Below, piece after piece: positions 3,238-51,823 of a DNA stretch of 64,000 nt. A program made the position numbers and the translations under genes. The number at the start of each line of letters is the position of its first letter. Within the stretch, counting starts at the first letter, position 1. Below the pieces are notes generated by a model, which was given only the letters and a program-made list of their open reading frames with translations, was not told where the DNA came from and ran no database searches. Source of the DNA: a virus. The DNA lies in the IMG/VR virus record IMGVR_UViG_3300032163_000002, positions 1 to 64,000 of that record. One strand, 5' to 3'.

Positions 3238-3380
3238 TTCACCCCCTTACGAAATTCCACAGGCCCTATTTTCCACTTCATTGTGATATTTGGCGTTTCT
3301 GGTAACTTCTGATTTCGTTGTCCTATCAAAAATCCAGCCAGAAAAAAGACAACTGCTACGAGAAGGCCAAATAAAGTCAT
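3234..3380 (-). CDS. 48-aa single-TM peptide
   Basis: Manual translation MTLFGLLVAVVFFLAGFLIGQRNQKLPETPNITMKWKIGPVEFRKGVK; ATGA-coupled on both sides. Confidence 0.65.
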   Translation of the reverse strand: MTLFGLLVAVVFFLAGFLIGQRNQKLPETPNITMKWKIGPVEFRKGVK

Positions 3381-3649
3381 AAATTGTCGAAAAATTCCTG
3401 TGGTTTCTCCTCTGCTTCTTCTCCACCAAGATAATTACTGATATGCTTCGAAGTCGTATTAGACCATTTCTTGTCAGTACGATAATACTTTCCACCAATG
3501 CGCGCTGCAACAGGCGTATCGTATGAAAAGAAAGTTTCATCTCCATTCGGCATCGTATGAACAAATTGGTTCGGCCCAAGAGTCTTTCCTTGTGCTTCAC
3601 CAATAAGAGCCTCAACAATTTTTTCGGTTGAATTTGATCTCATTAGCAT
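3377..3649 (-). CDS. Small protein with N-terminal tag (putative internal head protein)
   Basis: EKIVEALIGE followed by FSYDTPVA...KWSNTTSKHI phage domain. Confidence 0.65.
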   Translation of the reverse strand: MLMRSNSTEKIVEALIGEAQGKTLGPNQFVHTMPNGDETFFSYDTPVAARIGGKYYRTDKKWSNTTSKHISNYLGGEEAEEKPQEFFDNL

Positions 3650-3656
3650 CTGCCTA

Positions 3657-3833
3657 TTATGGTGTCTTAGGTTTCTTTAAGGTATTAAACAACCATTCAA
3701 CACCTAAAATCATAACATAAATGACGAAAGCAAGCCCACCAAATGACCCTAACTTAAGAAGCCACGCAGGAGCAGTGAAAACAGCGAGGAAAAGAACTGA
3801 AAGCAAAAGAGCAATGACAGCTTCTAGTAACAT
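3657..3833 (-). CDS. 58-aa two-TM membrane protein
   Basis: Manual translation MLLEAVIALLLSVLFLAVFTAPAWLLKLGSFGGLAFVIYVMILGVEWLFNTLKKPKTP; AAGGAG RBS. Confidence 0.65.
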   Translation of the reverse strand: MLLEAVIALLLSVLFLAVFTAPAWLLKLGSFGGLAFVIYVMILGVEWLFNTLKKPKTP

Positions 3834-3845
3834 GGTATATCTCCT

Positions 3846-4211
3846 TTATCGAGTTCCAATCATTCCATGAGGCCCAAAATGCGCCCCCCACGAAGACGAA
3901 TCATTGACATTGCCACGAGTGAAATTCTTCGCCGGACCTTTCCAACTCGCAGGATACCAAATATCTCCTGTTGCCCGCTCGACGAAACAATAAACGCTCC
4001 TGCTAGAACCATCTGATTTGACAATTCTAATATATTTAGGCCCAATATCCGTACTAAATGTCGGTGGTTTTATATGCTCCGGAGGAGTTCGTCCTGACCA
4101 GTTAGACCCAAAATTGTCACCTGTTACTTTTTTCAGATGCTCAATGAACGCAGCAACACCATCCTCAACACTCTCTCGCAAGAGATTCTTGACGATGGCT
4201 TCAGCGTTCAC
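3846..4211 (-). CDS. Tagged small protein (putative internal head protein)
   Basis: MNAEAIVKNLLRE; KYIRIV...SVYCFV...GDI..PASWKGPAK..RGN domain common in phages. Confidence 0.7.
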   Translation of the reverse strand: MNAEAIVKNLLRESVEDGVAAFIEHLKKVTGDNFGSNWSGRTPPEHIKPPTFSTDIGPKYIRIVKSDGSSRSVYCFVERATGDIWYPASWKGPAKNFTRGNVNDSSSWGAHFGPHGMIGTR

Positions 4212-4546
4212 GGATTAAACTCGCTGATCCAACTGCTGATGATTTCGGCAAGCTGATCAAAATAAATGTCATCCACTTCCTTAAGCTTATTAACGCTCCC
4301 TACATTACCTAGCTTATAAAGAGCAACCGTATAAGTATCTGTCCCAGCGTCATATTTAATGGTGATTTTCCCACGCTTGCCGACACGAAACATTAGCGAA
4401 TCCGAAGACTTGATGAAGTCTCGCGCACCCCACCGAGATAGCCCACTTAACCCGCCGAAGCCGCTCGCGACACGAAGTTGCTGAAGAATCGTGTCAGCCA
4501 CGTCTTCATATAGAAGTTTTCTGATAATAATTTCAATTTGATTCAT
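4208..4546 (-). CDS. Tagged small protein
   Basis: MNQIEIIIRKLLYE then ADTILQQL...GARDF...DTYTV domain. Confidence 0.7.
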   Translation of the reverse strand: MNQIEIIIRKLLYEDVADTILQQLRVASGFGGLSGLSRWGARDFIKSSDSLMFRVGKRGKITIKYDAGTDTYTVALYKLGNVGSVNKLKEVDDIYFDQLAEIISSWISEFNP

Positions 4547-4805
4547 ACTTGTCGCATGACCATCTCATGCTACCAACTTTGTTTCCGTTAACATCCCTGA
4601 GGTTAATTGAATCACCGGGGGCTAAGTCCTTGGCAGCAAGTTCGTGCAGAATACGCCGACACTCTTCCCACGGGTCATCTGTAAAAGCCTCATTATCTGT
4701 TTCGATCAAAATCGTAATCTGCTTTCCAGAAGAACCTATTTCCTTTAACGGAACCGCCGTCAACTCGGCAAAAAGTTTCTGGTGCATGTTCACACGTTCA
4801 GACAT
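4533..4805 (-). CDS. Hypothetical phage protein
   Basis: I.TDNEAF...E..RIL..LA...LRDVNGNKVG motif; coupled to neighbours. Confidence 0.65.
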   Translation of the reverse strand: MSERVNMHQKLFAELTAVPLKEIGSSGKQITILIETDNEAFTDDPWEECRRILHELAAKDLAPGDSINLRDVNGNKVGSMRWSCDKYESN

Positions 4806-5401
4806 TAGAATTCTCCATTAAATTCTTTGTGGCGAGAAGGATCAACCACGAAATTTTCACCACGCGTAGCATAATCTTTCTCCGGCACCAGAAAATACTT
4901 TTCTGGCCCACTACCTTCACGCCCACCCTTCTTAGCAACAACACCAACCATGCCCTTCGGAACCTTATCGTGCCAATCACCCCATGCCGCATACGAAATC
5001 CAATCATTTGCGTGCTGCTTGTAGAAAGCCCGCTGCCGAAGAACATGAGAATCTTCTGGTTTGACACTTTCCCCTGTTACTTTTTCATACTCATCAGGGT
5101 AATAATGTTTAAGGGCTTTCTTGGCTGAGTCAACCTTGCTGGAGTCAAAAATATTCGGGAAGGTTAAATGGACAATATTATAGTCCACATCTTCTTCATA
5201 CCATCCACCCTGTTTCCTCCATACCGAATTGACTTTCTGATTCATCGAAGGTTCCAGCTTATATCCGCCGTGAGTTGACGTACCAACAAAAACAATTCCC
5301 GGAGCTATTTGCTCTATGCTATCGGCTTTGCCCCACGGAGTTCGCATTCCCTCCCCGACTTCTCCGAGAAGGTTTTCAACAATCCGCTCAACTATGCTCA
5401 T
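4805..5401 (-). CDS. Tagged protein, DUF7007-like domain
   Basis: Start re-called at MSIVERIVENLLGE; TPWG...STHGGY.L...WYEED motif recalled as DUF7007. Confidence 0.65.
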   Translation of the reverse strand: MSIVERIVENLLGEVGEGMRTPWGKADSIEQIAPGIVFVGTSTHGGYKLEPSMNQKVNSVWRKQGGWYEEDVDYNIVHLTFPNIFDSSKVDSAKKALKHYYPDEYEKVTGESVKPEDSHVLRQRAFYKQHANDWISYAAWGDWHDKVPKGMVGVVAKKGGREGSGPEKYFLVPEKDYATRGENFVVDPSRHKEFNGEF

Positions 5402-5636
5402 CACTGAAAACTCCCGAGTCCATCGCATCTTCGGCGCAACCATCACACATATCCGTACCAGTCTCATCTTCCATGTCTATACGATAAAGTCTCTGTGTGG
5501 GCTTGGCTGAACACTTTTCACTGCCCTTATGAACCGGACAACCGGGATCGCCGCATTCACACGCGAAATTCGCGCTCTTCGAGTAGTCCCGCTCCAACAA
5601 CCTGCCGACGATTTTTTTGACCAGCGTGTTAGCCAT
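5388..5636 (-). CDS. Tagged Cys-rich small protein
   Basis: Start re-called at MANTLVKKIVGRLLE; CECGDPGCPVH...C...CDGC. Confidence 0.65.
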   Translation of the reverse strand: MANTLVKKIVGRLLERDYSKSANFACECGDPGCPVHKGSEKCSAKPTQRLYRIDMEDETGTDMCDGCAEDAMDSGVFSDEHS

Positions 5637-6030
5637 AAATAACGTCTCCAAACAGGGCGTACTGAATGATGGCATCCGCGTCCCCAGCATCGAAGTCGAT
5701 TTCTTCCTCGCTCTCCTCCGAGCCGAGCATGTTCGCCGAGAACCTGCTACTTCCGGAAGAAGGCTGACCCTTCTGTAAGAACAGCGCCAGCCCCGTGTCG
5801 AACTTTTCACGGGTCAGGTCGTACCACTTGTCTTCTTCCGAATCATGGATCTTGGTCGGAAACTGCGTCCCTTTCATCGAGTCGGCCCAATAATTGATCC
5901 CGCCCTCCGCCGCCACGCTGAGGATATCCTTCGCAAGCTGGTCGCTGGCCTTGCCCTCGGCGAGCCTGCGGCGCGGGATGACGAGTGCTTTAGTGAGCCC
6001 GCTCTTGATTTTCACTTCATACTCCTTCAT
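5629..6030 (-). CDS. Small protein with MK(I/V)xS-type N-terminus
   Basis: Likely GTG start at 6015 (KIKSGLTKALV...RLAE); AEGGINYWA...DAGDADAIIQYALFGDVIYG domain. Confidence 0.7.
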   Translation of the reverse strand: MKEYEVKIKSGLTKALVIPRRRLAEGKASDQLAKDILSVAAEGGINYWADSMKGTQFPTKIHDSEEDKWYDLTREKFDTGLALFLQKGQPSSGSSRFSANMLGSEESEEEIDFDAGDADAIIQYALFGDVIYG

Positions 6031-6032
6031 GC

Positions 6033-6067
6033 AAAAGAGCAGGCCCCCTCTTTCAAGAGAGCCTGCT
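6033..6067 (-). terminator. Terminator after sheath gene
   Basis: AGCAGGC...GCCTGCT stem followed by CTTTT. Confidence 0.65.
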
Positions 6068-6082
6068 TCACAGATCAGCTAA

Positions 6083-8563
6083 TTAAAAGGTCATATCCGC
6101 GAAATTCGTGCCCGTGTTCGTCACAGCGAACTTGACCTCGATAAACTCAGCCGCCTTTGTCGGCTTAAGAGCAACTACTCCGTGCATTTCGCTCCGGTCG
6201 ATAGCATCTGGCGGGTTCGTATTCTTGTCACAAATAACCATGTAATCGTAAACACCCCGCTTCTGCTTGACCATCTCCATATAAGGCTGCACAAGATTGA
6301 CGAACGTGTGCCAAGTGATCGGGTCATTCGGCTCGAAAACGAGATAACGCACCGCTGTCGCTATAACCTTGCGAAGATAAAGAATGAGTCGAACAACGTT
6401 GACCCGATCAAGAGCAGAAGGCTTCCGCTGAAGTGACCGCTGACCAAAAATCGTAATACCGTCCTTACGGAAATTCACGATGGGGTTGACAGAGTTCTGG
6501 TTGCCGTAAAGGAGATCCCGCTCACCCTTATCAGGGTTATACTCCAACTTGAGGGGCTGAAGCAGGTGGCCTCGATTAAGACCAGCAGGAGCGTACCACG
6601 TCTCTGTCGTGTAATCCGTAAAAGCGTACACACCTGCGGCGAGACCAGAAGGCGGCACCCATACTTTCTGCTTATTCACAGCATCATAAATCTGGAGCCA
6701 CGACCAGTAAAGAGCACCGTAGAAAGTGTTAAACGCCTGATGATCGTTATAAGCATTCGCACCGTTATGCCAATCCGTGACCTGTTGAACGGTCAACCCA
6801 AGCGGCGGATCAATGATAGCCATGCAATCCCCACGGGTCGAGCAAATCAACAACATCTCGTTAATAACCGCCGCACTTGAAATACCCGGTACTGCAAGGA
6901 GGTTCAGATCAAAGTCTTCAGCATTGGCGAAAAGCTGAAGCCCCGTCTTAACCGGGGAAAGCTCGCCAATATACTCACTATCCGAAATATCAGAAATACC
7001 ATCATTGCCACCAGCAAGAGTCGAAGCAATAAACGCCGGAACTACAGAAGAAGACCCGTTATTTGTCACAGTGATATACGCCGAAATTTCGTTGATCTGT
7101 GTCTCGCAGAAGCTTGTACTCGCTGAATTCTTATTCAAGTTATCAAACGATTCGACGTAAGCATCTCCATCATAAACGAGAAGCTTGAAGGATGTACCTG
7201 CACCGTCAGCCGATACTGTTGCAATAACTCGCAAATTATTGCCGTGAGTGCCCTTCGTAGCCGCAGTAACCGTAATTGACGTAGTAGCGGTATTCCCAGC
7301 ACCGGAAACAGATGCCGTCGAAAAATTGAAGGCGTACTGACCTGTGCCACCCGAGTCAACCTGCACGGAACCTGACGATCCAGCTACCAGAGTGGCGATG
7401 GTAACACCCCCTGCTGTATTGACAGAGGCGATACCTTCGTTATACCCCGTTGAACCGATGACGACATTGATTGCGTCAACCGCCGCCTGCGCGCCAATAG
7501 CTCCATTCGAAAATGCAACAACACGAACGTTTCCACCATTAAAACGAAGATGCAGAGAATTATTAGCCCCGAGACTGAACGGACCCGCCACAGCACCCGC
7601 CGAAACGGCCTTCGTCGCTACCGTTCCAATATGAACACTCAGATCGAAGCCGAGAATACTCGTTGCGGTTGAAGAACCAAGAACCTGAACAGTCGAAGAC
7701 GTACCAGTTGTAGCAGAAATGACACGAACAACGTGATTCCCACCGTCAACCTGTGCCGAAGCCGTACCGTGAGAAGTAATAACGCCATTGATGCTGGTCG
7801 CAATATCCGTTGCCGCTTCATCTCCAGCGGTCAGCGTAACATTATAGATCGTTCCATCAATAGCAATATCCAATACATCATTTGAATTCTGAACGATCGT
7901 GTAAGGTTCATTAACCGCTACACCCTGAATCTTGCCAGCCGTAGCCGCAAGGCCATTTACCGCACCTGCCGTAAAACCAAGCGTTGTGTTCGCCGTTGAA
8001 CCATTTCCAATGGTGTCGATGGTCACAGCACCACCGCTACCGACAGTATTTGTAGTAATGGTAATAGTCTGATCCGGATTTACCGCTACGACGCATCCAG
8101 AGACAGCATTCGCAATCTCTGACGCCACCTGAGTCGCCGTGCGCACACCCTTTGTCAGTGTAACTGCGATGAATGAACCTGCGTCAATTTTGACACGAAG
8201 AACTTCATTTGCAGTTGACCGAATCGTGTAGGGTCCAGCTACGCCGGAAGACACGCTCGCTGTCGTAGTCTTCTCCTTGAGCGCCACCGCTGCCTGCGCT
8301 GCGCTGGCTCCTGCGACCCGAACGAAGAACATCTGACTGCCATAGCGGAGGAACTGAAGCGCCGCATAAGGAGCCATGTAGTTCGGATTCGGGTTTCCAA
8401 ACGAAGAAACGAACGACAACACGTTAGAAATATAAGTAGCCTCGTTGAGCGGGCCTTTAGATGCGGCCCCAACAATCCCGAGAATCGTCGTCGAAAGATT
8501 CGGGATATAAAGGCTCAGGTCTAGAATAGTTGTATAAACTCCCGGACTTATGTACGTGGGCAT
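6083..8563 (-). CDS. Contractile tail sheath protein (T4 gp18 family)
   Basis: MPTYISPGVY...KGPLN N-terminus; C-terminal WYAPAGLNRG, LY...NPI, GQRSL, RVNVVRL, FEPND, KPTKAAEFI. Confidence 0.95.
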   Translation of the reverse strand: MPTYISPGVYTTILDLSLYIPNLSTTILGIVGAASKGPLNEATYISNVLSFVSSFGNPNPNYMAPYAALQFLRYGSQMFFVRVAGASAAQAAVALKEKTTTASVSSGVAGPYTIRSTANEVLRVKIDAGSFIAVTLTKGVRTATQVASEIANAVSGCVVAVNPDQTITITTNTVGSGGAVTIDTIGNGSTANTTLGFTAGAVNGLAATAGKIQGVAVNEPYTIVQNSNDVLDIAIDGTIYNVTLTAGDEAATDIATSINGVITSHGTASAQVDGGNHVVRVISATTGTSSTVQVLGSSTATSILGFDLSVHIGTVATKAVSAGAVAGPFSLGANNSLHLRFNGGNVRVVAFSNGAIGAQAAVDAINVVIGSTGYNEGIASVNTAGGVTIATLVAGSSGSVQVDSGGTGQYAFNFSTASVSGAGNTATTSITVTAATKGTHGNNLRVIATVSADGAGTSFKLLVYDGDAYVESFDNLNKNSASTSFCETQINEISAYITVTNNGSSSVVPAFIASTLAGGNDGISDISDSEYIGELSPVKTGLQLFANAEDFDLNLLAVPGISSAAVINEMLLICSTRGDCMAIIDPPLGLTVQQVTDWHNGANAYNDHQAFNTFYGALYWSWLQIYDAVNKQKVWVPPSGLAAGVYAFTDYTTETWYAPAGLNRGHLLQPLKLEYNPDKGERDLLYGNQNSVNPIVNFRKDGITIFGQRSLQRKPSALDRVNVVRLILYLRKVIATAVRYLVFEPNDPITWHTFVNLVQPYMEMVKQKRGVYDYMVICDKNTNPPDAIDRSEMHGVVALKPTKAAEFIEVKFAVTNTGTNFADMTF

Positions 8564-8612
8564 GTTTTTGTACCTCTTCTATCTAGATAGTTGTTATCGA
8601 CTTTTTTTGTCG

Positions 8613-8843
8613 TTACTTACTCGGAGCAGAAATAACAGGAACAACGGGTACTACAAACTCGTGAATTTCTGTGAACTCGACATAGCCCTTCACAGACTTA
8701 TCGAGTACGTCCTGAGACATTTCTTCAGCCGAAATTTCACGTTCAGCTAAAGCTGGAAGAAGCGCGCTGACATGCTTTCCAGATGTGGTCTTTAGGGTCA
8801 GGTTGATTCCCTGACGAGTTTTATTCTTAAGCAGATACTTCAT
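8613..8843 (-). CDS. Small hypothetical virion-region protein
   Basis: AAGGAG RBS; directly upstream of sheath. Confidence 0.65.
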   Translation of the reverse strand: MKYLLKNKTRQGINLTLKTTSGKHVSALLPALAEREISAEEMSQDVLDKSVKGYVEFTEIHEFVVPVVPVISAPSK

Positions 8844-8855
8844 GACTTTTCTCCT

Positions 8856-9278
8856 TTAGTTTTTGTATTCGTTATCACATACGATATCTGTGCTATCACA
8901 TGCCGGACAATTCATCTTGGTTTTACAATGAGCCCCGCAGTTATTGCAGATGAATGGCGTCGCCGAACCTCTAAAATGACTGCGAAATTCTATGTGTGCT
9001 TTTGACATGGGCTCACCTGTGTCCTTGTAATATTCTGTTTCCCCGAGCAACGCCTCAACGATCTTGTTCGCGCGTACTCTACAAACTTCTTGATGGTCAT
9101 CATTCATGGCTGCCGCAACCCTTTCAGCATCCTCTTTGCTCAAATTACCTTTAATCAAAGCAGAATAATGCTGTTCAGCTTGATAAGTGGAAGCATAAAA
9201 CTTAGGAGTTTCTCCATGAAGTGCCTTAAAGACTCCCCATGTGTACCCTTCCCCTTTCTCAAAAAAATACTGTTTCAT
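8856..9278 (-). CDS. Two-domain tagged protein
   Basis: N-domain paralogous to 26437..26658; internal NKIVEALLGE; C-terminal CxxC...CxxC ribbon. Confidence 0.75.
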   Translation of the reverse strand: MKQYFFEKGEGYTWGVFKALHGETPKFYASTYQAEQHYSALIKGNLSKEDAERVAAAMNDDHQEVCRVRANKIVEALLGETEYYKDTGEPMSKAHIEFRSHFRGSATPFICNNCGAHCKTKMNCPACDSTDIVCDNEYKN

Positions 9279-10663
9279 GCTTTCGTCTCGTCAGGCTGGT
9301 CCATCGGATATCCAGCATTAGGTTTCTTTTCAAGCGTGTCCTTCTCGTCATCTTTTTCGTCATCATCATCGAGTTCCTGCTTTGGAGTCCGGAGATTCTT
9401 CGACGTGACCAACGTAGCGAGTAGATGATCAGCTTTAGCGAGCAAATTAACGACCTCGGCAATTTCGTCGTAAAGCTCCTCAGAATCTGCTGGGCTATTC
9501 GACGAAGCAATTCCTTCAATGGTCCCGATCAAATGCGGGATGTCATCTTTATAATGTGAAAGCCGATCAAGAAGCGATTGGTCAATTTCTTCTGTCAATG
9601 GCTTAGAAGCAGAATGCTTATTTTCCAGTTTTGACCTCTTCAGATCAATACTCGTGAAAGCCATTGTAGGAGTAGAATCATTCGGTGAAGGTGAAACAGC
9701 AAAAATTACAGGAGTTACGGCATGACATCCATGACAAAAAAGATCACCTTCCATTCCCCGTTTCTTTAATGTCATGATTGTTCCACCACACTTCGGACAT
9801 TCTGCACCATAAGAATCCGCTTTGTCAGTACTCCATTCAACGCCCTCATTCAATAATTGATTAACAATTTTTCGTACAGATTCCTTATTCCACACAATCT
9901 TAACCGGTATGCGTTCATCCGGCTTTGGCCTATTCTGCTGCCGAATCTTATTAAAGTCAATCTTCTGACCCGTACCTTCACATGACGGGCAATTATCCCG
10001 CTCAATACCGGGCTTGCAGGAACACCGCTCTCCGGTCTTTGGCTGATACCCTACTTCGTAAAACAGCTTACGGCTGCTCCGGTTCACAGCTTCGCTTTTT
10101 GTTCGACCAAACCCTCCGCAAGACGAGCACCCTGCACCCTTACACTGCGGGCATAGCCCCTTGAAGCCCATCGGAACGGTGGCAATATCTCCGCTCGTCG
10201 TGTCTTCGGTGCAATCCTTGAATTTCTTGTCCATGAAATCTTCAGCAGATTCCTTGTTAAAAGTGTCATCCCAAGTAGGAGAGTCATTTCCTGCCTTATA
10301 TTCCCGCTCCTTACCACCAATACCGGGGCGATGCAACCTGTCTAACGCAGCTTTCCGCCTCGCTGCACCGTCTTCGGCAGATTCTTCTTTTTCATCATCA
10401 CCCATTAAAGTCATACAAGTCTGACAAAGATCACTACCAGCTTTACGAGGGCTCTCCCCACAAGCGCTACAAAGAGGAGCTTCACCAGTCGGTGTACCTT
10501 CATCATCATCAGGCCCGAATTCGCCCTCCATCAAAGATTTCGTAATGCAAGGGTTTCTCACAAGCGTAGATTTTCGATTAAAAAAATTCTCAACCGGGCG
10601 CTCTTCTTCAGCGACTCTACCGGGCAAATGACGTAGGACATCTGACATTTTCAGTCTCCCCAT
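9275..10663 (-). CDS. Acidic, Cys-rich multi-module polyprotein (putative head cargo)
   Basis: Several CxxC mini-domains separated by Glu sites incl. ESVRKIVNQLLNE; probable start at 10648. Confidence 0.7.
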   Translation of the reverse strand: MGRLKMSDVLRHLPGRVAEEERPVENFFNRKSTLVRNPCITKSLMEGEFGPDDDEGTPTGEAPLCSACGESPRKAGSDLCQTCMTLMGDDEKEESAEDGAARRKAALDRLHRPGIGGKEREYKAGNDSPTWDDTFNKESAEDFMDKKFKDCTEDTTSGDIATVPMGFKGLCPQCKGAGCSSCGGFGRTKSEAVNRSSRKLFYEVGYQPKTGERCSCKPGIERDNCPSCEGTGQKIDFNKIRQQNRPKPDERIPVKIVWNKESVRKIVNQLLNEGVEWSTDKADSYGAECPKCGGTIMTLKKRGMEGDLFCHGCHAVTPVIFAVSPSPNDSTPTMAFTSIDLKRSKLENKHSASKPLTEEIDQSLLDRLSHYKDDIPHLIGTIEGIASSNSPADSEELYDEIAEVVNLLAKADHLLATLVTSKNLRTPKQELDDDDEKDDEKDTLEKKPNAGYPMDQPDETKA

Positions 10664-10671
10664 TTAGATAG

Positions 10672-11610
10672 TTACTCTAGAAGACTATTTATAATTCTCT
10701 TAACAGATTCATTCTCTCCAGCAACCTTCTTCTTAAGCTTTATCCATCTGTCAACTGCGGCTCTTTTCTTTTGATCGGGAGTTGCATATTTCTGAAGATT
10801 AGCATCAACAGTGGAAGTACCAGATATTTCTTTATGACCTTTAATTCCAGACCCCGGACCACCTTCTACCAGATATCCTACGATCCGACTGACAGCTTCC
10901 GGAACTCCCCCAAGACTTCTATCTACACGCCCACCACGAGAACACGCACCACAGATGAACGTGTTCTTTTCCAAGCAGGGAGAAGCTCCGTGGGGAGGGT
11001 CCGTCGGCCTTCCAACACTCCGAGCAGGGCACAGCGCGCCTTCCTTGGCCCACCGAAGGCAGTCAGGATGCCCACAGAGCGGCTCAGCATCTTCTCTGAT
11101 GGACTCGTTCTTCTTACGGAGTGTTTCAATAGCGGCTGATCGTTCCTCGCGGGACATATCAGCGTACTTACCTCCGCCAACATAAGCGTCATAGGCATCT
11201 TTTTGGTCCTTCGGACTCCAGTCTTCTGTCCCGGCAATATGCCCCTTATCTTCTTCACAAATGGATTCATCCTTTCCAGCCGTGTCGATGTCATAAAAGG
11301 GTGCCCATTCCTTGACAGCCACACTATTTCGTCTTCCAGCACGCAGGTCTTCCTTGACAGCGTCTTCGACATAACGCTGACCATCACCTGTTAACGGGTT
11401 TTCTAGAAATTTATTGCAAGAATCACAATGCTGAGGAGAATCTGCTTCGCCTCCACCATCCGAATACGGCCCCTTCGGAAAATCGTCAGAATCATAAGTA
11501 TTTTCGTCATTCGGATCATCGGGAGCTTTTCCAGCACGGGTTAGTTCTTTTTTGACCTTTTCTCCACAAGGGCCACACAGAAGCGCGGCCTGATACATAT
11601 AAGCGTCCAT
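10672..11610 (-). CDS. Multi-module polyprotein (putative head cargo)
   Basis: EAVSRIVGYLVE, C-terminal ESVKRIINSLLE, KxESIxE linkers, GGPGSG..GH motif. Confidence 0.7.
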   Translation of the reverse strand: MDAYMYQAALLCGPCGEKVKKELTRAGKAPDDPNDENTYDSDDFPKGPYSDGGGEADSPQHCDSCNKFLENPLTGDGQRYVEDAVKEDLRAGRRNSVAVKEWAPFYDIDTAGKDESICEEDKGHIAGTEDWSPKDQKDAYDAYVGGGKYADMSREERSAAIETLRKKNESIREDAEPLCGHPDCLRWAKEGALCPARSVGRPTDPPHGASPCLEKNTFICGACSRGGRVDRSLGGVPEAVSRIVGYLVEGGPGSGIKGHKEISGTSTVDANLQKYATPDQKKRAAVDRWIKLKKKVAGENESVKRIINSLLE

Positions 11611-11613
11611 CTG

Positions 11614-12084
11614 TTATTCTCCTTCGTTCGGATCGACGCCAACCGTCAGCGCCCCTTTACAGAAAGGACAAGCATCCTGTTCTTCATCATCCAGACGCCC
11701 ATCCGAATCCTTGTGGCCCCGCTCGTGTCCTTCAATAAACAAGTTGTAAAGATCAGCCTTCACGTAATCGAATTCACGTAGAAGTCTGTTCACAATATGC
11801 GGAACTTTTCCCTCATCACGAGAAGACCCTTGAGACTGATCTTCAATACCGTGATAGATTTCTGCGTAATATTGTATCAACGCTGTAATTGCTGCGTCGT
11901 TTTTGTGGTATTCTGCTATCGCTTGCTGGTAACTCTCAGGTTTTAATTGATAATCACGACCATGCGGAGAAACTTCCGACATAAGTTTTTTGGCTTCTTG
12001 AAGCACCTCATAAACATCTCGCACGTTATTTAGCAATGAACTACGAGATGTGCCATTCAAATTAACAGTAGGTATGGTTGCCAT
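11614..12084 (-). CDS. Tagged two-domain protein
   Basis: PTVNLNGTS...PHGRDY domain then HIVNRLLRE. Confidence 0.7.
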   Translation of the reverse strand: MATIPTVNLNGTSRSSLLNNVRDVYEVLQEAKKLMSEVSPHGRDYQLKPESYQQAIAEYHKNDAAITALIQYYAEIYHGIEDQSQGSSRDEGKVPHIVNRLLREFDYVKADLYNLFIEGHERGHKDSDGRLDDEEQDACPFCKGALTVGVDPNEGE

Positions 12085-12098
12085 TACTACACCTTCTC

Positions 12099-12233
12099 TT
12101 AGATAGTCGTTTCAAGAAGACGAAAAACAATACGAAGATCATCAGGGAGCTGATCTGGAACAGAAAACGCCCCACGAAGCGTATTAAATTTACCCGCAAT
12201 AGGTGATTTTTTCTGCCAGTCTGAAAGAGTCAT
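12099..12233 (-). CDS. 44-aa peptide ending in tag-like motif
   Basis: Manual translation MTLSDWQKKSPIAGKFNTLRGAFSVPDQLPDDLRIVFRLLETTI; exactly fills gap between genes. Confidence 0.5.
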   Translation of the reverse strand: MTLSDWQKKSPIAGKFNTLRGAFSVPDQLPDDLRIVFRLLETTI

Positions 12234-12238
12234 GAGTT

Positions 12239-12907
12239 TCAGCCCTCCTCTATGATTTTTTCAAACGCCGTTGCATCAAAACCACGCGATTCGTCGTACC
12301 AAACAACATCTACGCGCTCGATAACCTTCCGCACAGTGCGCACATCGACAATAGGAAGAGGCAACCAAGCTTCTAATTCAAATGTGATGGTCATACGAAT
12401 TTCACGGTCCGATTCCATATCTGGCTCAAGTTCAGTAAGATCCTGTACACCCTTTTCAAAAAGGGCAACACGCTTTTTCCCCCATCCCTCCCCAAGATCA
12501 ACCGTCAAATACCGGCGCCTGCGAGGAAATTTCTGAAGCGTCAAAGCCGTCAGAATATTCGCATCGTCCCTGAATTTTGCCCAAATATCAAGCTGGTATC
12601 CAATATCGTAAGCCATAGGGTGTTGAGATTGTTTGACAAAATTCAGATCATCAGACCACGCCAATTTTCTGTGAACAACCGGATTATACCGCTCCTCGGA
12701 TCGAATCCAATTCAATCGAGTTACAACCATCGCTGGCAAACGTACAGTTTGATCCCCGCGAAAAGGCACCTCAGATTTGTTCTCTGGAAACATTTCTGAT
12801 TGTTTACCATATTCCCTGCGGGGCGTAGCAAAGCCAATCGGCACGAAGTCCTTTTCCAACGTGAGCCGAAGAAAATTAAAGACGGCAAAATCATATTTTC
12901 GAAGCAC
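12239..12907 (-). CDS. Tail terminator / sheath stabiliser (gp15-like)
   Basis: LPAMVVTR...P.AYDIGYQLDIWAK...D...L..Q...F pattern and position. Confidence 0.65.
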   Translation of the reverse strand: MLRKYDFAVFNFLRLTLEKDFVPIGFATPRREYGKQSEMFPENKSEVPFRGDQTVRLPAMVVTRLNWIRSEERYNPVVHRKLAWSDDLNFVKQSQHPMAYDIGYQLDIWAKFRDDANILTALTLQKFPRRRRYLTVDLGEGWGKKRVALFEKGVQDLTELEPDMESDREIRMTITFELEAWLPLPIVDVRTVRKVIERVDVVWYDESRGFDATAFEKIIEEG

Positions 12908-12910
12908 AGA

Positions 12911-13465
12911 TTACTCGCCTGATTTCGCAGCCCTTAATGCCCGATTCGCTGCTCCAACAGGAGACGTTCCACTGTCATACCAGTCCCGCAAAGGAACATC
13001 TGGTAAATCGTGAATAGACATCCCCCCACGCTTCCATACAGCGTCATCCACCTGCTTCAGCCATTCCTCAAATGACAACTTTTGAGCTTCAGCCAGAAGT
13101 CGAGACACGATACGTTCAGTAGCTTCTTTTTTCTGCCAATCAACCGGAACAGGCATCCGTTGACCCGGAAGCTTCAAACCGGGGCAATCACATTTCGGTA
13201 AAGCACGACAAGAATCACCTATTCCTGTTGACCCATCCCAATCATTCTGTCCATGTATTACCGCAGCGTGACCACAATTAAGACACTTAAGGATACCTTC
13301 TGCCTCGTCCACATCTTCCCTTTCCTTTTTCAAAATACCAGTACCTTTATCTGCCTGATTGAATTCCTTTCCCACAGACTGAGGAATTCCCATCTTCTTT
13401 GCAAACGAAGCAGAATGGGCAACACCGGCCATTGTTCTAGCTTGCTTTTTTGAGACTGAAGGCAT
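12911..13465 (-). CDS. Three-module tagged protein
   Basis: MPSVSKKQ..MAGVAH..FAKKMGIPQSVGKEF basic module; CxxCGH Zn module; EATERIVSRLLAE; C-terminal DLPDV..RDWYDSG module. Confidence 0.7.
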   Translation of the reverse strand: MPSVSKKQARTMAGVAHSASFAKKMGIPQSVGKEFNQADKGTGILKKEREDVDEAEGILKCLNCGHAAVIHGQNDWDGSTGIGDSCRALPKCDCPGLKLPGQRMPVPVDWQKKEATERIVSRLLAEAQKLSFEEWLKQVDDAVWKRGGMSIHDLPDVPLRDWYDSGTSPVGAANRALRAAKSGE

Positions 13466-13474
13466 GACCTACTC

Positions 13475-13912
13475 CTACTTATCCCCTTCGTAACGAGCAA
13501 AAATATTACCAGTGTGAGGATCACTCAAAACTGCGCGAATATGCCCTGTGGTCCACACCGTAGCGAGTTTTTCCTGCACAAATTTCTCAAGAGTATCCTC
13601 ATTGGCAGTACCATAATTTGACCACGGCTCTGAACCGCGATTTCCACTTGAAGTACGAAATTCCACTACAAAACGCTGCGTCTGTGCTGCGGCATCTTCC
13701 AACAAACTATTTACAATATCTCGCACACGCGCTTCATTAGTTCCAGCCCATACGTCCTTACCGATTTTTGTAGCTCGTTTATCTCCATCCTTCGGCTCAA
13801 ACCCACCCTTGCTCCGCCAATCCCAATAACCCTTCAAAAGTTCAAGAGTTGTATTCGGGTCTTCAGCGTTAAGAGCAGTTTCCGCGCGAGCCAAAGCAAT
13901 TTCGGGGTCCAT
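13475..13912 (-). CDS. Two-module tagged protein
   Basis: Start re-called at MDPEIALA (GAGGAG RBS); internal EARVRDIVNSLLE. Confidence 0.7.
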   Translation of the reverse strand: MDPEIALARAETALNAEDPNTTLELLKGYWDWRSKGGFEPKDGDKRATKIGKDVWAGTNEARVRDIVNSLLEDAAAQTQRFVVEFRTSSGNRGSEPWSNYGTANEDTLEKFVQEKLATVWTTGHIRAVLSDPHTGNIFARYEGDK

Positions 13913-13934
13913 ATGTATCTCCTCACTAGGATAG

Positions 13935-14549
13935 TTAACCACGAGCTTGCTTCAAACGTTTTCGAATATCTTCCCGAATATCTTTGACAATTTCACGCCG
14001 AAGCGTTTTCATTTCAATTTTCCAACGCTTAATCGCAGGTCTCCAATGTGGACGTGGAGGCATTCCACCTTTTAACGTAACAGTACCTTTATACTTTCCA
14101 CCTCTCGGGCCACGTATGACAACTTTACGCTGTCGAGTACCATATTCAAGCCACTTAGCAAGCAAAGCATAAGAAAGTGTACGAATTTTGAAACCCTGCT
14201 TCGTCTTGATGACATCATAGCGCGTCTTCCGAGTCAACCCGATTATTGCCCCGAATTTGGTTTTTTCTACCCCAATAGCCCGGATATATTTCGTCGTGGC
14301 AATCAAAATACGCGGGTCCAACCCCTTACGAATTTTCCACCGCAAATATGCCGGAGAAAGCGGCATGTGGTGGAGACGTTGACTGTAAATGTCATTACGA
14401 AGCCCCTGCGCCATTTTCTTCGCAGAATCGTAAACTCGCCCCCTCACTCGAAGAACGAGCGGCCCCGGATTACCCGGTGTCCCAAATGCCTGCGCCACAA
14501 TATACGTAGGCCGAACTTTGGGCGCGATGACCTGCGCGCAGATTCTCAA
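13935..14549 (-). CDS. Virion morphogenesis / tail-completion protein (HK97 gp10-like)
   Basis: PLSPAY...K...LIAT; WLEYGT...MPPRPHWRP; very basic. Confidence 0.7.
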   Translation of the reverse strand: MRICAQVIAPKVRPTYIVAQAFGTPGNPGPLVLRVRGRVYDSAKKMAQGLRNDIYSQRLHHMPLSPAYLRWKIRKGLDPRILIATTKYIRAIGVEKTKFGAIIGLTRKTRYDVIKTKQGFKIRTLSYALLAKWLEYGTRQRKVVIRGPRGGKYKGTVTLKGGMPPRPHWRPAIKRWKIEMKTLRREIVKDIREDIRKRLKQARG

Positions 14550-14551
14550 AG

Positions 14552-15205
14552 CTAGTTATTGCCACCGTGGATTTTTCCGTCATCCCCTACATAAAGATCG
14601 TAAGTTCCAAAAGATTTACAAGCATCAGAAAGCTTCTTGAATACCGGGTCATCACCCTCATCCCAAAAACCCGCGCCATGACCATTCCGGTTCAACCAGA
14701 AATCGTGTCCCGCGCGGTCATCTTTGAGCCCTGATTCTGCGAGATCCTTTTCATTTTTCTGTACGAACGAATTGCAATCATTTTTCATTTCAGAACGTGT
14801 AGCCGAATCAAGATCCTCCGGTCCATAATTTTTGTCGAGCGGTTCACCCCCGCTGGGTGTAGATTCATCCGTAGATGACCAAAGCGCGCATTCAATATAA
14901 GCATTAACGAACCGGTTGCTCGCTGACTCCGTCAGCTTCTCCCCTGCCGGACACCCTGACTCCCCATATTGCATACCAAAAATAGCCAAAAAACCGGGAC
15001 TCAACTGGTCGTATAAATCATCTGCTTTCTGCTTGTCTTCACTTGACATGGAAGCAGGATATGTAGGAATAGCTTTTCTCTTTGCCCACTTTACACCAAG
15101 CTTCTTCATAGAAGCATAAAGCTCTAAATCTTTATTATTCGGCTTGGTCTCAGCTTCTTTCACTTCCTCAAATAACTGCGTAAAATATTTTCCATGTAAA
15201 CTCAT
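14552..15205 (-). CDS. Multi-module protein (putative head cargo)
   Basis: KLTE|S then AYIECALWSS...GHDFWLNRNGHGAGFWD domain. Confidence 0.65.
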   Translation of the reverse strand: MSLHGKYFTQLFEEVKEAETKPNNKDLELYASMKKLGVKWAKRKAIPTYPASMSSEDKQKADDLYDQLSPGFLAIFGMQYGESGCPAGEKLTESASNRFVNAYIECALWSSTDESTPSGGEPLDKNYGPEDLDSATRSEMKNDCNSFVQKNEKDLAESGLKDDRAGHDFWLNRNGHGAGFWDEGDDPVFKKLSDACKSFGTYDLYVGDDGKIHGGNN

Positions 15206-20380: not shown

Positions 20381-21829
20381 TTAGGTAAGGCGAATCTTAC
20401 CGTAAAACAATCCGTTGACGGGTTTTTTAGCGTAGTGGGTCAGAAGTCCCTTCCGCCCCATGAAGTCATCGAGGTAAATCGTCGGTGTAGCGTAGAAAGG
20501 AATCCACGGGGCATACACGTACCCCGCATCAAGGAAAGAGTCACCCTTGTACCCAACAATGGCAGTATCCATGTCAAGGTAGGGGTCCATGAAGACCTTG
20601 AACATATTCTGAATCGTTCCAATATACTGAACGCCCGAGCCCTGTATCGTACCAGCAGACTGGAACTGCGCACCTTCCTGCCCCATGATGATGTTGGCAA
20701 CAGTGATACCGCAGAGAATCCAGTTTGCCCGATGCCGACGAGTAGCATGGAAAATCTTGTTCGATGCTTCAATCAGTGAGTAAATGAAAGACTGACGATG
20801 AAGATAAAGCGCAACGTTCGAAGGCGCAGACTTGGTAAACGTTGTCTCCGGAATTACCTGTGACGTGTTATTCGCGTTTGCCATCATCAAAAGATCGTTG
20901 ATGATCTCACGATCAACCTCGATCCGCATTTCGTTCGCCATATCCGTGACGATCTCAGTCTCAGCTTCCATGCCACGAACAGACTTCAACTGAGCCGCTG
21001 CTTCAATGCTCCACCGAGCGCGCAGCTTACGAGGCCGCGAAATAACCGGGATGCTCGTAAGCATGATATCGACCTGCGGAACAAGATCGCCAGCGCCTTC
21101 CGAGTTGTAATCGTACGTTCCCGTAATCGGCTGTGCATCCGGTCCCTTACCCGTAGCAAAAGTGAGAAGGATATAACCAGTCGAATAATTGACGCTGTTA
21201 CCAGAACTTTCGAGTTCACCAGCCGCACCAATGACTCCACCGACACCATCGTCCGTAAGTGTTTTGACAGCATGATCGGATGCCGTGTAAGAAATCACAA
21301 GAGAACCGGGACGGATAATAGTAAAAGCTGCCTTCGTACCGGGAGTTGTACCGAGAGGTGTAAGAGCAGCAGAACCCGCGCCAACACCAAGCGTCTCACC
21401 CTGCACGATCTCAGACGAATAATTGAAACCAGAAGCATCGTTCCAGCCCGTCCGAGCAGAGAAGAGTGAATCGCCCGCCTTCACTGCGCCCTTACTCGTG
21501 CCAAAGCGCGAGTCACGGAAGAAAATCAGGCTGGTAGGAGACTGCATCGGTTGGACCGATACAAGCTCCGTGCTAACAAGGTTCGGGTAAACGCCTTTAA
21601 TCATCGGGAAAATGAATTTCTCAAATGACCCGATATTAGCAACGCGCGTTTCCTCGTCAAGTCCCTCAAGCCATTTTCGCTGATTTTCCATGAGGAACGC
21701 TACGAGGGGTTTCTTATCTTCCGGAAGGCCCGCGACGAATTTCCTCCACGGACCTCGTGCAAGAGCCGCCGCCGTCTGATTCTGGCTTGAAAGAGCCAGA
21801 GCCGCTTCGTTGAGTTCAGCCATTGTCAT
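20381..21829 (-). CDS. Major capsid protein (T4 gp23 family)
   Basis: VSVQPMQSPTSLIFF, RKLRARWSIEAAAQL, EVDREII, GYKG...DAGYVYAPWIP. Confidence 0.95.
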   Translation of the reverse strand: MTMAELNEAALALSSQNQTAAALARGPWRKFVAGLPEDKKPLVAFLMENQRKWLEGLDEETRVANIGSFEKFIFPMIKGVYPNLVSTELVSVQPMQSPTSLIFFRDSRFGTSKGAVKAGDSLFSARTGWNDASGFNYSSEIVQGETLGVGAGSAALTPLGTTPGTKAAFTIIRPGSLVISYTASDHAVKTLTDDGVGGVIGAAGELESSGNSVNYSTGYILLTFATGKGPDAQPITGTYDYNSEGAGDLVPQVDIMLTSIPVISRPRKLRARWSIEAAAQLKSVRGMEAETEIVTDMANEMRIEVDREIINDLLMMANANNTSQVIPETTFTKSAPSNVALYLHRQSFIYSLIEASNKIFHATRRHRANWILCGITVANIIMGQEGAQFQSAGTIQGSGVQYIGTIQNMFKVFMDPYLDMDTAIVGYKGDSFLDAGYVYAPWIPFYATPTIYLDDFMGRKGLLTHYAKKPVNGLFYGKIRLT

Positions 21830-21863: not shown

Positions 21864-23864
21864 TTACTTAGCCGAAGGGACATTAAGAATAGATTTAGGC
21901 GCCATGCGCTTGTAAACCGCTTCAGAAAGTGCAAGCTGATGATCCAAGATTGTTTCGCCACTCTTCTTAGCCGGACCGCGTGAGCCAAAATCGCTATCTT
22001 CGGTGAGCGAACGAAGCGCACCGGGGGAAGCTACACGAACACCCGGAAGGGCACCATTGGCAAAATCAACCGCAGAAGATGCTGATCTATCCGCAGCTTC
22101 AGTAACAGCCCGCTTGGAGACAGCCACTTTATATTTCCGAATAAGAGACTCGATGACAGACGGAATAAGCCCCGACGGAATCCGCTGACCACGAATCTTG
22201 AAGGACACAACGCCACGCCGAATATTCCGAACCGCAGATTCGTACCGTTTGACAACTTTCGTCATGGTGGCGAGAGCATGCCCGGCAACGGCCTCCGTGA
22301 CTTTGCGCTGGTAACGGAGTTTCTTATTCTCAGCTACGAGCCTCCGAAGCATCTTGGCGAGCTTTGCCTCAAGCGGAGGAAGATCCTTCTCATCTTCAGG
22401 CTCTTCGTCAGCGTCAGCAAGATCCTCGGGCGGATCAGGAACCTCAAATTCTCCACCCTCTTCACGGAAAATAGATTCAAACGAAGGTGTGCCACCACCC
22501 GGTGATTTCATGAAATCCTTTTCCTCTTCTCCATCTTCAGGCTTCGGAATTTCAGATTCCGGAGGAGCGGCTTCGAGCGTCTCATCCTCATCCTCGTCGT
22601 CATTCTCACCACCTTTCTTGAAAGGAGGAGCCTTCTTCCCGCCAAAATCAGCGTCTTCCTTGAATCCCCGCAGGTAGCTCCGCGTGCTCCGAAGAAGGCG
22701 TGACTCACACTTCTTCACGGAATCTTTGACGGTCTTTTCCTTCGTTGCCTCGGGGTCGTCGTCAGCGTTAACCTCGGCATCCATCTCCCGAAGCAGCTTT
22801 TCGAGGCGCTTCGAGGAAGCTGCTCCGGCTTCCTGCATTTCCGCCATAGTCGTCTCCTCCTTTTTAGTTACTTTTTCGAGAGCGCCCGCCCCTTTTACGA
22901 CGGGGGGAACTTCATCCTTGGGAAGCTGTGTATTATCTTTGAATCCGGAAGCGCCAAGTTTCTTCAAAAGCTCAGGTGGCATATTGTTCGATGCACCTTC
23001 ACCAGTCTCAATAATAGAAGTGAAAAAGAGCTTTTTCATAGCCTGAAGCTCAGGAAGCAAACCAAAAACAAGAGGCTTCACATCCGGAGCTTCCTCTGCC
23101 AAAACATTTAGTCTGTAAATAAGATCCGTCACGGCATTTTCCGTGATAGACCGAACTTCCGAAGTTGCCTTCCGCACGTCAACACGCAGCATATCCTGTG
23201 CAGAGCGTTCCAGAAGTCTGTAAGTATCGAGGGAATTCGCCATGTATTTCTCCTCCTTTTTTCCATTTGCATGCTCTTGCACAGGAGTCGGGTAAGCGCC
23301 ATGTGTCGAAGGATTGTGGACAAAATCGAAAGCTTCAAGCACGAAATCATCTTGTACGATATCGCGCCCACCTTCTTTAAGCACTTCGCCAGAACCCCGT
23401 GAGGAAGCTCCAACCTTAGTTCGAGCACGGAAAAGAGCTTCCGCTTCCCTACCATAAATCGTTGGCAAAATTTCAAATTCGGCCCATATTTCACCTGCCT
23501 CGTTCATGTTTAATGCAGTGACAATATGAGACGTACGCGAAAGCCGGGTTTGTCCATCGTCCGGATGATCCAATTCCCCATAAAATCCACGCTCTGTAAT
23601 CTTGGTCTGAGCGGGAGAGTCAGGGCGGATCTGTTTTTCCCATACCTTACGAGGATATATTCGGTTATTCTCGTTAACAGTATCTGAACGCTGAACAAGA
23701 CCCCGAACACGAAGCGGCTTGCCTTCTAACCCTGTACCTTCTACGATTTCGTATTTAAAATTCTCGATGACTTCGCAGAGAGGCTTCTTCTTTCCGCGAG
23801 TACTCCATGCCCCCATGAACGGGGGTGGCTTGATAGACGGCGAAGTAAGAAGATCCATAGGCAT
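21864..23864 (-). CDS. Prohead protease (gp21 family) fused to acidic scaffold-like region
   Basis: NENNRIYP, GELDHP, GASSRGSG, FDFVHNPSTHGA; then about 460 aa of E/K-rich helical tail. Confidence 0.9.
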   Translation of the reverse strand: MPMDLLTSPSIKPPPFMGAWSTRGKKKPLCEVIENFKYEIVEGTGLEGKPLRVRGLVQRSDTVNENNRIYPRKVWEKQIRPDSPAQTKITERGFYGELDHPDDGQTRLSRTSHIVTALNMNEAGEIWAEFEILPTIYGREAEALFRARTKVGASSRGSGEVLKEGGRDIVQDDFVLEAFDFVHNPSTHGAYPTPVQEHANGKKEEKYMANSLDTYRLLERSAQDMLRVDVRKATSEVRSITENAVTDLIYRLNVLAEEAPDVKPLVFGLLPELQAMKKLFFTSIIETGEGASNNMPPELLKKLGASGFKDNTQLPKDEVPPVVKGAGALEKVTKKEETTMAEMQEAGAASSKRLEKLLREMDAEVNADDDPEATKEKTVKDSVKKCESRLLRSTRSYLRGFKEDADFGGKKAPPFKKGGENDDEDEDETLEAAPPESEIPKPEDGEEEKDFMKSPGGGTPSFESIFREEGGEFEVPDPPEDLADADEEPEDEKDLPPLEAKLAKMLRRLVAENKKLRYQRKVTEAVAGHALATMTKVVKRYESAVRNIRRGVVSFKIRGQRIPSGLIPSVIESLIRKYKVAVSKRAVTEAADRSASSAVDFANGALPGVRVASPGALRSLTEDSDFGSRGPAKKSGETILDHQLALSEAVYKRMAPKSILNVPSAK

Positions 23865-24820: not shown

Positions 24821-25057
24821 TCAAAGTTGAACGTTTGACGGAACAGGAATGACCCCACTATGCTCGCCAGATGCCCTCATGAACACCACGTAACGACCAG
24901 CAGAGCCCCCTTTTGCGACAACCAAGTAATCCCACACAGCTCCAGCTATTTTCTTACGTAAATCTTCTACCCGAGAAATCGTCAATCCACCGGGAAGCAT
25001 GTCCCCTGCCCTCGGAAGAGTCAACAGACGTTCAACAATAACCTCAGCCGCGTTCAT
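24821..25057 (-). CDS. Small protein with tag-like N-terminus
   Basis: Start re-called at MNAAEVIVERLL. Confidence 0.55.
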   Translation of the reverse strand: MNAAEVIVERLLTLPRAGDMLPGGLTISRVEDLRKKIAGAVWDYLVVAKGGSAGRYVVFMRASGEHSGVIPVPSNVQL

Positions 25058-42767: not shown

Positions 42768-42768
42768 T

Positions 42769-45940: not shown

Positions 45941-46153
45941 CTACCTCTCAAAGAGATAGTCTCTCTGAGCTTTATGCATGAGCGCTCGCGTTTTTTCCTC
46001 AACTAATTCCATTTCGTAAATTGCCCGCCCGAATTCACCGAGCGGAGCTTTGAGAAGTGGTGATTTTATGGGCTGTGGTTGAGAAGGAAAAGTCACTTGT
46101 CCAGCGAGAAAATGCTCAACTATTTTCCGCACACGTCTCGTGTCGGTTCGCAA
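45941..46153 (-). CDS. Small protein with tag-like N-terminus
   Basis: RVRKIVEHFL; late motif and AGGAGG upstream. Confidence 0.55.
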   Translation of the reverse strand: MRTDTRRVRKIVEHFLAGQVTFPSQPQPIKSPLLKAPLGEFGRAIYEMELVEEKTRALMHKAQRDYLFER

Positions 46154-51526: not shown

Positions 51527-51823
51527 TTATCTACGGACAGAGGTTCCAGAAAAATCCTTCGGCCTCGGTCCGCTATCCATGTGTGCCTGATCGTTTGCCG
51601 TAGACCAGATTGAGCCATCTCGACGAAAGCCAAGAAACCACCCCGCGTGCTCGTAGACTTCGACAAAGTTACAGGAAGAATGCGCTGCGAACCACTCTTC
51701 CGCCACCTTCCTCATTAGTTCGTTTCCGTACTCTTTATCTCCGAGATGAACGATATCGTAATCATCACCCTCATTTTTCTCAATGAGCTTCTCTACGAGC
51801 TGCGAAGTTGCTTTCATCTTCAC
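51527..51823 (-). CDS. Tagged small protein
   Basis: MKATSQLVEKLIE. Confidence 0.65.
   Translation of the reverse strand: MKMKATSQLVEKLIEKNEGDDYDIVHLGDKEYGNELMRKVAEEWFAAHSSCNFVEVYEHAGWFLGFRRDGSIWSTANDQAHMDSGPRPKDFSGTSVRR

Follow-up and report, generated by a model that had tools for sequence, protein, structure and literature searches.

Why do thirteen otherwise unrelated proteins of an uncultured phage, nearly all encoded among its neck and tail sheath genes, carry one and the same short peptide? This question is raised by the window analysed here, i.e. the first 64 kb of the IMG/VR virus record IMGVR_UViG_3300032163_000002, a complete record of 141,027 bp with direct terminal repeats, whose phage is referred to below as G0. 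Nearly all genes of the window lie on the minus strand, and the 64-141 kb part of the genome holds replication, baseplate, tail and fibre genes. The major capsid protein belongs to the gp23 family and shares no more than 35% identity with its counterpart in any cultured phage, which places G0 in a distant T4-like lineage. Related sheath genes were found on four IMG/VR contigs, and two relatives serve for comparison: G1 (the contig behind L003) and G2 (seen in L002 and L030). The peptide in question (the tag) has the consensus E-(S/A)-(V/T)-x-(K/R)-I-V-x-x-L-L-x-E and, with 13 residues, is longer than described in an earlier note on this DNA. It occurs in 14 copies on 13 proteins, with 13 copies at 3.4-13.9 kb and one at 51.8 kb. 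We propose, with a probability of roughly 0.6, that the tag is a signal for capsid targeting and protease release of the type of the phage T4 capsid-targeting sequence (CTS), which would here be expanded and independent of its position in the chain. The tagged genes (cargo genes), together with two carriers of a variant, are as follows:

3377..3649, minus strand: cargo gene of the PF26096 family, N-terminal tag at 3596-3634 ending I-G-E (homologue alignment and AlphaFold2, AF2)
3846..4211, minus strand: cargo gene of the DUF7717 family, N-terminal tag at 4173-4211 ending L-R-E (profile match)
4208..4546, minus strand: cargo gene of phrog_9437, N-terminal tag at 4505-4543 ending L-Y-E (PHROGs match)
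4805..5401, minus strand: cargo gene of the DUF7007 family, N-terminal tag at 5360-5398 ending L-G-E, true start ATG at 5401 (profile match)
5388..5636, minus strand: small Cys-rich cargo gene, N-terminal tag at 5592-5627 ending L-L-E, true start ATG at 5636
8856..9278, minus strand: two modules, an N-module and a Cys-rich one, separated by the internal tag at 9039-9077
9275..10663, minus strand: multi-module Cys-rich protein of 462 amino acids (aa), internal tag at 9845-9883 ending L-N-E (weight matrix)
10672..11610, minus strand: 312-aa multi-module protein, internal tag at 10864-10899 ending L-V-E and C-terminal tag at 10675-10710, whose Glu is the last residue
11614..12084, minus strand: 156-aa protein, internal tag at 11773-11811 ending L-R-E (weight matrix)
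12099..12233, minus strand: 44-aa open reading frame (ORF), tag at 12111-12146, stop three residues later; its coding status rests mainly on the tag motif
12911..13465, minus strand: 184-aa protein, internal tag at 13088-13126 ending L-A-E
13475..13942, minus strand: 155-aa protein, internal tag at 13697-13732 ending L-L-E (weight matrix)
51820..52332, minus strand: S-adenosylmethionine (SAM)-lyase family protein (PF23780, DUF3293), tag at 51829-51867, stop two residues later
24821..25057, minus strand: 78-aa protein with an N-terminal Glu-less tag variant, in the head module
45941..46153, minus strand: 70-aa protein with an N-terminal Glu-less tag variant (matrix score 9.7, within noise)

All 16 peptides listed in the earlier note were recovered in minus-strand ORFs at the genes it names, and the motif is far more frequent than expected. 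Indeed, (i) the control pattern I-(V/I)-x-x-L-(L/I/V)-x(0-1)-E matched 15 times in the three coding-strand frames of the window versus once in the other three, (ii) in the whole-genome gene set it was found 13 times, whereas 500 within-protein shuffles gave 0.74 matches on average and never more than 5, so that the comparison with shuffled controls proposed in the earlier note comes out in favour of the motif, and (iii) an 11-column weight matrix, built from the 14 instances and scanned over the same gene set, separates the tag from all other sites. This gene set contains 11 of the 14 instances, the other three being in ORFs dropped by greedy selection; the 11 scored 18.7-29.8 bits, the next best site in the 141-kb proteome 10.1 and reversed sequences up to 12.3. 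An equal frequency of the motif among replication genes, named in the earlier note as an observation that would speak against its reading, was not encountered, as no convincing tag copy is present in the replication and tail genes of the 64-141 kb part. The two Glu-less variants reported earlier do exist, but their matrix scores are much lower than those of the tag. Linkers of the type K-x-E-S were rejected as a significant motif (6 observed versus 2.3 expected, with a shuffle maximum of 8). Synonymous codons vary freely among the copies, so the conservation is at the level of the peptide and not of a DNA repeat, and a repeat, a promoter or a recombination site can be excluded as the nature of the motif.

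The tag is a bolt-on, placed at the natural N-terminus of independent domain families, because homologues of the PF26096 and DUF7007 cargo start just past the position of the tag Glu. The PF26096 homologues (n=60, mostly 72-74 aa) start where the 3377-3649 protein continues after its I-G-E, and for the best 150 of 2945 DUF7007 homologues the match starts 1-7 residues after the tag Glu in nearly all cases, and on the side of the homologue it usually begins at residue 1-10 of a stand-alone protein. The tag is absent from all 150, in which the matrix score does not exceed 6.8. The AF2 model of the PF26096 cargo, made with the PF26096 alignment, likewise has a separate tag helix of lower confidence (residues 5-13), a short linker holding the Glu and then a confident domain from residue 18; a Foldseek search of this model against the PDB gave nothing below E 0.1. 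For the internal-tag protein 8856-9278, modelled with no alignment, the mean predicted local distance difference test score was 43 and the model is uninformative. Its N-module is a paralogue of an untagged 73-aa protein (26437-26658; 40% identity, E 3e-11). In the protein 12911-13465, the phrog_519 match begins at the first residue past the Glu of the internal tag and a weak, sub-threshold DUF5419 match four residues later, and residues 1-53, which form the N-module, hit PHROG families that carry the annotation virion structural protein.

The cargo identified so far comprises the SAM-lyase family, with its C-terminal tag, DUF7007, DUF7717, PF26096 and several Cys-rich modules. The claim of the earlier note that one motif sits on otherwise unrelated proteins thus stands, as the cargo falls into different Pfam and PHROG families with the tag outside the conserved domains. 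The same fact speaks against shared ancestry, i.e. diverged paralogues that have kept one helix, although several cargo proteins are made of small Cys-rich modules and could be distantly related. Chance is excluded by the shuffle and matrix statistics. Both explanations are hardly credible, being essentially refuted by the shuffles, the matrix and the start positions of the homologues.

The placement and the ending of the tag bear on what it does. After correction of the start codons of two genes (4805-5401 and 5388-5636), five copies are N-terminal, six internal and three C-terminal (0-3 residues before the stop). In all 14, the last three residues are (L/I)-x-E, the Glu standing 6 or 7 residues after the Ile, and for the N-terminal copies (5/14) the predicted cut lies 12-18 residues in. 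The T4 gp21 protease cleaves at the motif L/I-X-E (PMC9026906), and the agreement of the tag Glu with this rule, pointed out in the earlier note, therefore holds for 14/14 copies. The genome does encode a gp21-type protease, as had also been stated. It lies beside the capsid gene:

20381..21829, minus strand: major capsid protein, gp23 family (Pfam Gp23, E 7e-56 in a profile search)
21864..23864, minus strand: S77 gp21-like prohead protease (residues ~40-200) fused to an acidic, scaffold-like C-terminal part, 666 aa

This is the only S77 match in the genome (Pfam S77, E 1.4e-10); it aligns to the T4 gp21 structure 5JBL (E 5.5e-7) with His100 and Ser155 in place, and His100 and the Ser of the S-R-G motif are kept in all three phages. 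It is the presumed processing enzyme of the tags. Furthermore, an (L/M)-x-E site is common to the capsid proteins of G0, G1 and G2 at about residue 60, immediately ahead of the Pfam Gp23 domain, and T4 gp23 is cleaved at about the same place (PMC9026906).

These data would also fit a mere processing site, i.e. a linker or propeptide that serves as substrate for the prohead protease, or for a different one, and has no role in capsid targeting; the purpose could be to hold effectors in an inactive state before maturation or to divide polyproteins into pieces. All copies share the ending, the internal ones stand between modules and a basic linker of G2, quite different otherwise, ends in the same way. 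The gp21 motif, however, needs just L/I-x-E (PMC9026906), yet eight more upstream positions are conserved; for the three copies at the extreme C-terminus a cut would remove 0-3 residues; and the removal of a jobless N-terminal peptide of 12-18 residues is hard to rationalise. Moreover, a prohead protease works inside proheads, which its substrates must reach in any case. We regard this explanation as quite unlikely. Both the C-terminal copies and the conservation of eight positions outside the protease motif argue for a function of the helix other than marking a cut, and the invariant ending together with the late structural context argues for an involvement of the prohead protease.

A docking site on the scaffold was sought in two segments. 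The tail segment R-L-E-K-L-L-R-E, put forward in the earlier note, had to be abandoned, since it is not conserved in the scaffold of G1, the closest relative. A second segment, S-V-K-K-C-E-S-R-L-L, is kept in G0, G1 and G2 and resembles the tag by eye; it falls below the matrix threshold and was retained as a lead only. In the same polypeptide, a Met-Ala-Asn sequence just past the protease domain (internal ATG near 23243) is present in G0 and G2, G1 having the Met only, and its presence in the two phages suggests that a scaffold product is translated separately from a nested start, or that autocleavage takes place at this point.

Of the following genes of the structural module, the first two are conserved landmarks with tagged genes inserted around them:

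6083..8563, minus strand: tail sheath
12239..12907, minus strand: gp15-like tail sheath stabiliser
13935-14549: Neck1-like protein

Directly after the sheath gene, at 6038-6067, lies a strong 13-bp hairpin followed by a T tract, the next gene beginning about 10 nt downstream; it possibly acts as an attenuator, or stabilises the RNA, at the junction of the sheath gene with the cargo genes that follow. Between neck genes, 15872-16513 encodes a protein with an N-terminal hydrophobic segment and a Thr/Pro-rich stretch of about 70 residues. Two families of sigma-70-type promoters are present in the window only between 28 and 64 kb, and in the structural module (2.5-20 kb) promoter-like sites occur only at the shuffled expectation; as this module is devoid of sigma-70-type promoters, the main tag presumably sits in late genes. 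The T4 late promoter TATAAATA, searched for near the cluster, gave 2 matches in 64 kb versus 1 expected, which is uninformative. The promoter-like sites include a family with a conserved 17-nt spacer (TTGACTTTCTGTAATAAGTAACCTAT-type; 28019, 30477, 31801, 33633, 34846 and 40606) and a separate palindrome-bearing class (39247, 42086, 51447, 58521 and 62334).

A second leader family, M-K-(V/I/A)-x-(S/T)-x-L-x-E-x-L-I-E, is encoded at 42.3-51.8 kb in six copies, all of them strictly N-terminal (6/6), and four of the six have the final (L/I)-x-E. The members at 42303-45319 are downstream of the sigma-70-type promoter at 51447.

42303-42767, 43833-44087, 44635-44829, 44877-45101 and 45101-45319, minus strand: five genes of the second leader family
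51527..51817, minus strand: sixth member of the second leader family

The position of these leaders in probable early operons would suit a docking helix for a hub other than the prohead, such as a host protein, a regulatory or chaperone hub of the phage or other tagged proteins, with a multi-protein complex or a shared localisation as the outcome. The motif, a high-information amphipathic helix usable at any position of the chain, and the cargo, which is not basic, speak for it as well. On the other hand, no gene that might encode a partner accompanies the tags, as G0 and G1 have structural and replication genes in common, and a hub of this kind explains neither the invariant (L/I)-x-E nor why the tags of three phages lie amid late structural genes. 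We therefore consider it unlikely.

Within the second leader cluster, the gene 43050-43829 encodes a papain-family (C1) cysteine peptidase. Its position could point to a leader recognised by a modifying or exporting enzyme, namely this peptidase or a maturase like those of ribosomally synthesised and post-translationally modified peptides, and systems of this sort typically attach one leader to small proteins that are otherwise unrelated. This explanation is very improbable: the 141-kb genome has no radical-SAM gene, the peptidase is without homologue in G1 or G2 although both are tagged, for which reason it was also rejected as the processing enzyme, and nothing enzyme-like was detected in the tagged cluster by Pfam or PHROGs.

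One look-alike of the T4 CTS, M-K-D-Y-R-E-V-V-E-T, was found in frame upstream of the likely start of 24363-24704, in a stretch of twenty codons (24644-24704). It was discarded as probably not translated, because the internal ATG at 24644, at which the G1 orthologue also starts, has a perfect ribosome-binding site in front of it. The tag itself may bear some resemblance to N-terminal peptides of ParB.

The comparison with the relatives shows that the tag was kept while the cargo was exchanged. G1 is 63% identical to G0 in the sheath and 64% in the capsid protein, with syntenic structural genes, and it encodes at least 16 tags of the same shape, one of them with an identical nine-residue core. 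These tags occupy the same slots around the neck and sheath genes, and in addition a slot beside the head genes: that syntenic to 24821-25057 holds four leader-tagged genes in G1. The small interleaved genes of G1 have no detectable homology to the cargo of the window except for one DUF7717 domain, and a Pfam search with ten of the G1 cargo proteins returned nothing useful. Many G1 tags have the N-terminal form M-(R/K)-(V/I/L)-x-x-x-L-x-E-A-L-L-x-E, which bridges the main tag of the window and the second leader family. HNH endonuclease genes have been inserted into the structural module at different points in the two phages, behind the capsid gene in G0 (window 19628-20290) versus ahead of the sheath gene in G1 (L003 9302-9985), which suggests mobile HNH elements.

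G2 is more distant (sheath 54% identical) and has a compact neck module. After its sheath gene (L002 12249-18055) are encoded multi-module proteins of 842, 476 and 322 aa, whose modules are joined about 16 times by the basic linker E-S-(K/R)-(K/R)...(L/I/V)-(K/R)-E. Beside the gp25 baseplate gene, N-terminal leaders of a similar shape occur on a Zeta-toxin-like kinase and on paralogues with a weak, sub-threshold PARP-like match; in the cluster at this site (L030 10972-14992) these paralogues number three and have the motif L-Y-H-G-T-S, and a SAM lyase as well as an HExxH protein are also encoded. What the three phages have in common is therefore a lineage-specific element followed by hydrophobic-x-Glu. 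The window also holds an untagged protein within the cluster (14552-15205, 217 aa, phrog_1915), the N-terminus of which (…Y-F-T-Q-L-F-E-E) resembles a different CTS-like leader; its G2 homologue has an extra N-module and a basic E-S-K-K stretch before the conserved domain.

According to the favoured reading, that of a capsid-targeting and release signal, the basic and hydrophobic part of the tag, (K/R)-I-V-x-x-L-L, would dock the protein on the core of the assembling prohead (scaffold, protease or inner capsid surface), and the gp21-type protease would cut behind the final (L/I)-x-E once the shell is assembled. N-terminal tags would be removed, internal tags would split two-module precursors into small proteins and C-terminal tags would be retained. 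The freed proteins would remain packaged and pass into the host together with the DNA, and at least some of those delivered, one being the SAM lyase, may counter host defences. Docking, cleavage, packaging and injection are thus the steps that we infer. The figure of about 20 released mini-proteins given in the earlier note is arithmetically right if every site is cut, but cleavage cannot explain the C-terminal copies.

Several observations weigh against this reading. The three C-terminal copies gain nothing from cleavage, so that the tag must do more than provide a cut site, and it is only assumed that this further role is docking; the tag is unlike the T4 CTS in sequence beyond its general shape; and its look-alikes in the scaffold are either not conserved or below the matrix noise. 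Two of the six second leaders are without the final Glu, and this family stands in operons driven by sigma-70-type promoters and probably early. The orthologous DUF7717 domain of G1 (L003 15325-15684, 48% identical) has no tag. Finally, the cargo is mostly acidic to neutral, whereas the T4 internal proteins are basic.

A bolder version, which we hold only tentatively, is that of a truly position-independent helix read by a conserved prohead receptor. Loading would then be plug-and-play across the clade, with about 20 exchangeable injected effectors and with lineage dialects following one grammar (a docking element, then hydrophobic-x-Glu). The C-terminal tags would stay on the mature cargo, and the tag could be used as a general handle for protein delivery.

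If the proposal of a capsid-targeting and release signal is correct, T4 capsid targeting would not be confined to T-even phages; distant T4-like phages that are uncultured would use it as a loading system both general and able to evolve, with lineage-specific tags, in which a single tag both addresses the cargo and joins modules. It would furthermore provide a sequence-only way to spot proteins injected ahead of the phage DNA, and such proteins would be prime candidates for new counter-defence and host-takeover functions. In G0 these candidates are the 13 tagged proteins, with the function of nearly all of them unassigned and a SAM lyase identified, and toxin-like enzymes are encoded in a relative. 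The tag itself, as a short peptide, is a possible handle for encapsidation.

The closest known system is that of T4. The T4 CTS is a 10-residue N-terminal peptide, some residues of which target while others direct gp21 cleavage (PMC9026906, PMC3012670, PMC8442874), and it brings IPI-III, Alt and fused foreign proteins into the scaffolding core (PMC9026906, PMC3012670, PMC8442874, PMC5694885). Replacement of the T4 Glu by Asp abolishes processing and leaves targeting intact (PMC9026906). As with the G0 tag, a short common peptide ending L/I-x-E is carried by unrelated, non-essential proteins (IPI, IPII, IPIII and Alt), and head genes of the gp23 and gp21 types are present in both phages. The T4 cargo includes counter-defence functions (PMC9026906, PMC3012670, PMC8442874), for which the SAM lyase is the candidate counterpart in G0. 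In contrast, the T4 peptide, MKTYQEFIAE, differs in sequence from the G0 tag, which is one helical turn longer and has a basic N-cap; the T4 CTS is N-terminal only, whereas 9/14 copies in G0 are internal or C-terminal; and the G0 system, known from sequence alone, comprises 13 tagged proteins and six with the second leader, the genes being spread through the neck/sheath module. In the T-even relatives, diverse internal proteins stand behind a conserved targeting sequence, and at these polymorphic loci, as between G0 and G1, the peptide is conserved and the cargo exchanged (PMC3012670, PMC9026906). Unlike these loci, G0 and G1 belong to a far more distant lineage, have many more slots and use tags that also join modules in one polypeptide.

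In phiKZ, 201phi2-1 and SPN3US, a protease related to gp21 cleaves many proteins of the head interior behind a Glu, as proposed for G0, and the propeptides of these proteins are believed to guide their incorporation (PMC5694885, PMC9026906). These propeptides differ from the G0 tag in being long (often >100 residues), without a single short motif and with the rule S/A-x-E. Alt-type enzymes of T4-like phages are packaged and their genes lie beside baseplate genes (PMC5512222); the leader-tagged kinase of G2 can be likened to them because it is encoded beside gp25.

Polyvalent proteins (PMC5512222) resemble the proposed G0 cargo in that small conflict-related domains follow one another in series and are predicted to reach the host along with the DNA, and among the matches listed for the DUF7007 family some are inside proteins of 831 and 873 aa. 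A polyvalent protein is a large polypeptide uniting 2-15 conflict-related domains, frequently with a peptidase among them; the G0 proteins fall outside this definition, as the largest tagged ones have 462 and 312 aa, and no Pfam domain or peptidase could be recognised in these two. Unlike polyvalent proteins, the G0 cargo consists mostly of separate genes, or of two- to four-module proteins joined by a defined tag, and most of it is single-domain. Processing would be the task of the prohead protease in G0, versus that of an embedded metallopeptidase in polyvalent proteins.

The loading of the Dar proteins of phage P1 relies on dedicated assembly partners. To our knowledge, no common short peptide is shared by the Dar proteins. 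Like the cargo proposed here, these anti-restriction proteins serve in counter-defence, are packaged in the head while it is being assembled and are then injected (PMC9024508, PMC12810830).

In summary, the principle of capsid targeting by a short peptide is already known, and what G0 and its relatives would add to it is the position-independent use of the tag, the scale of the system and comparative evidence from a distant uncultured clade.

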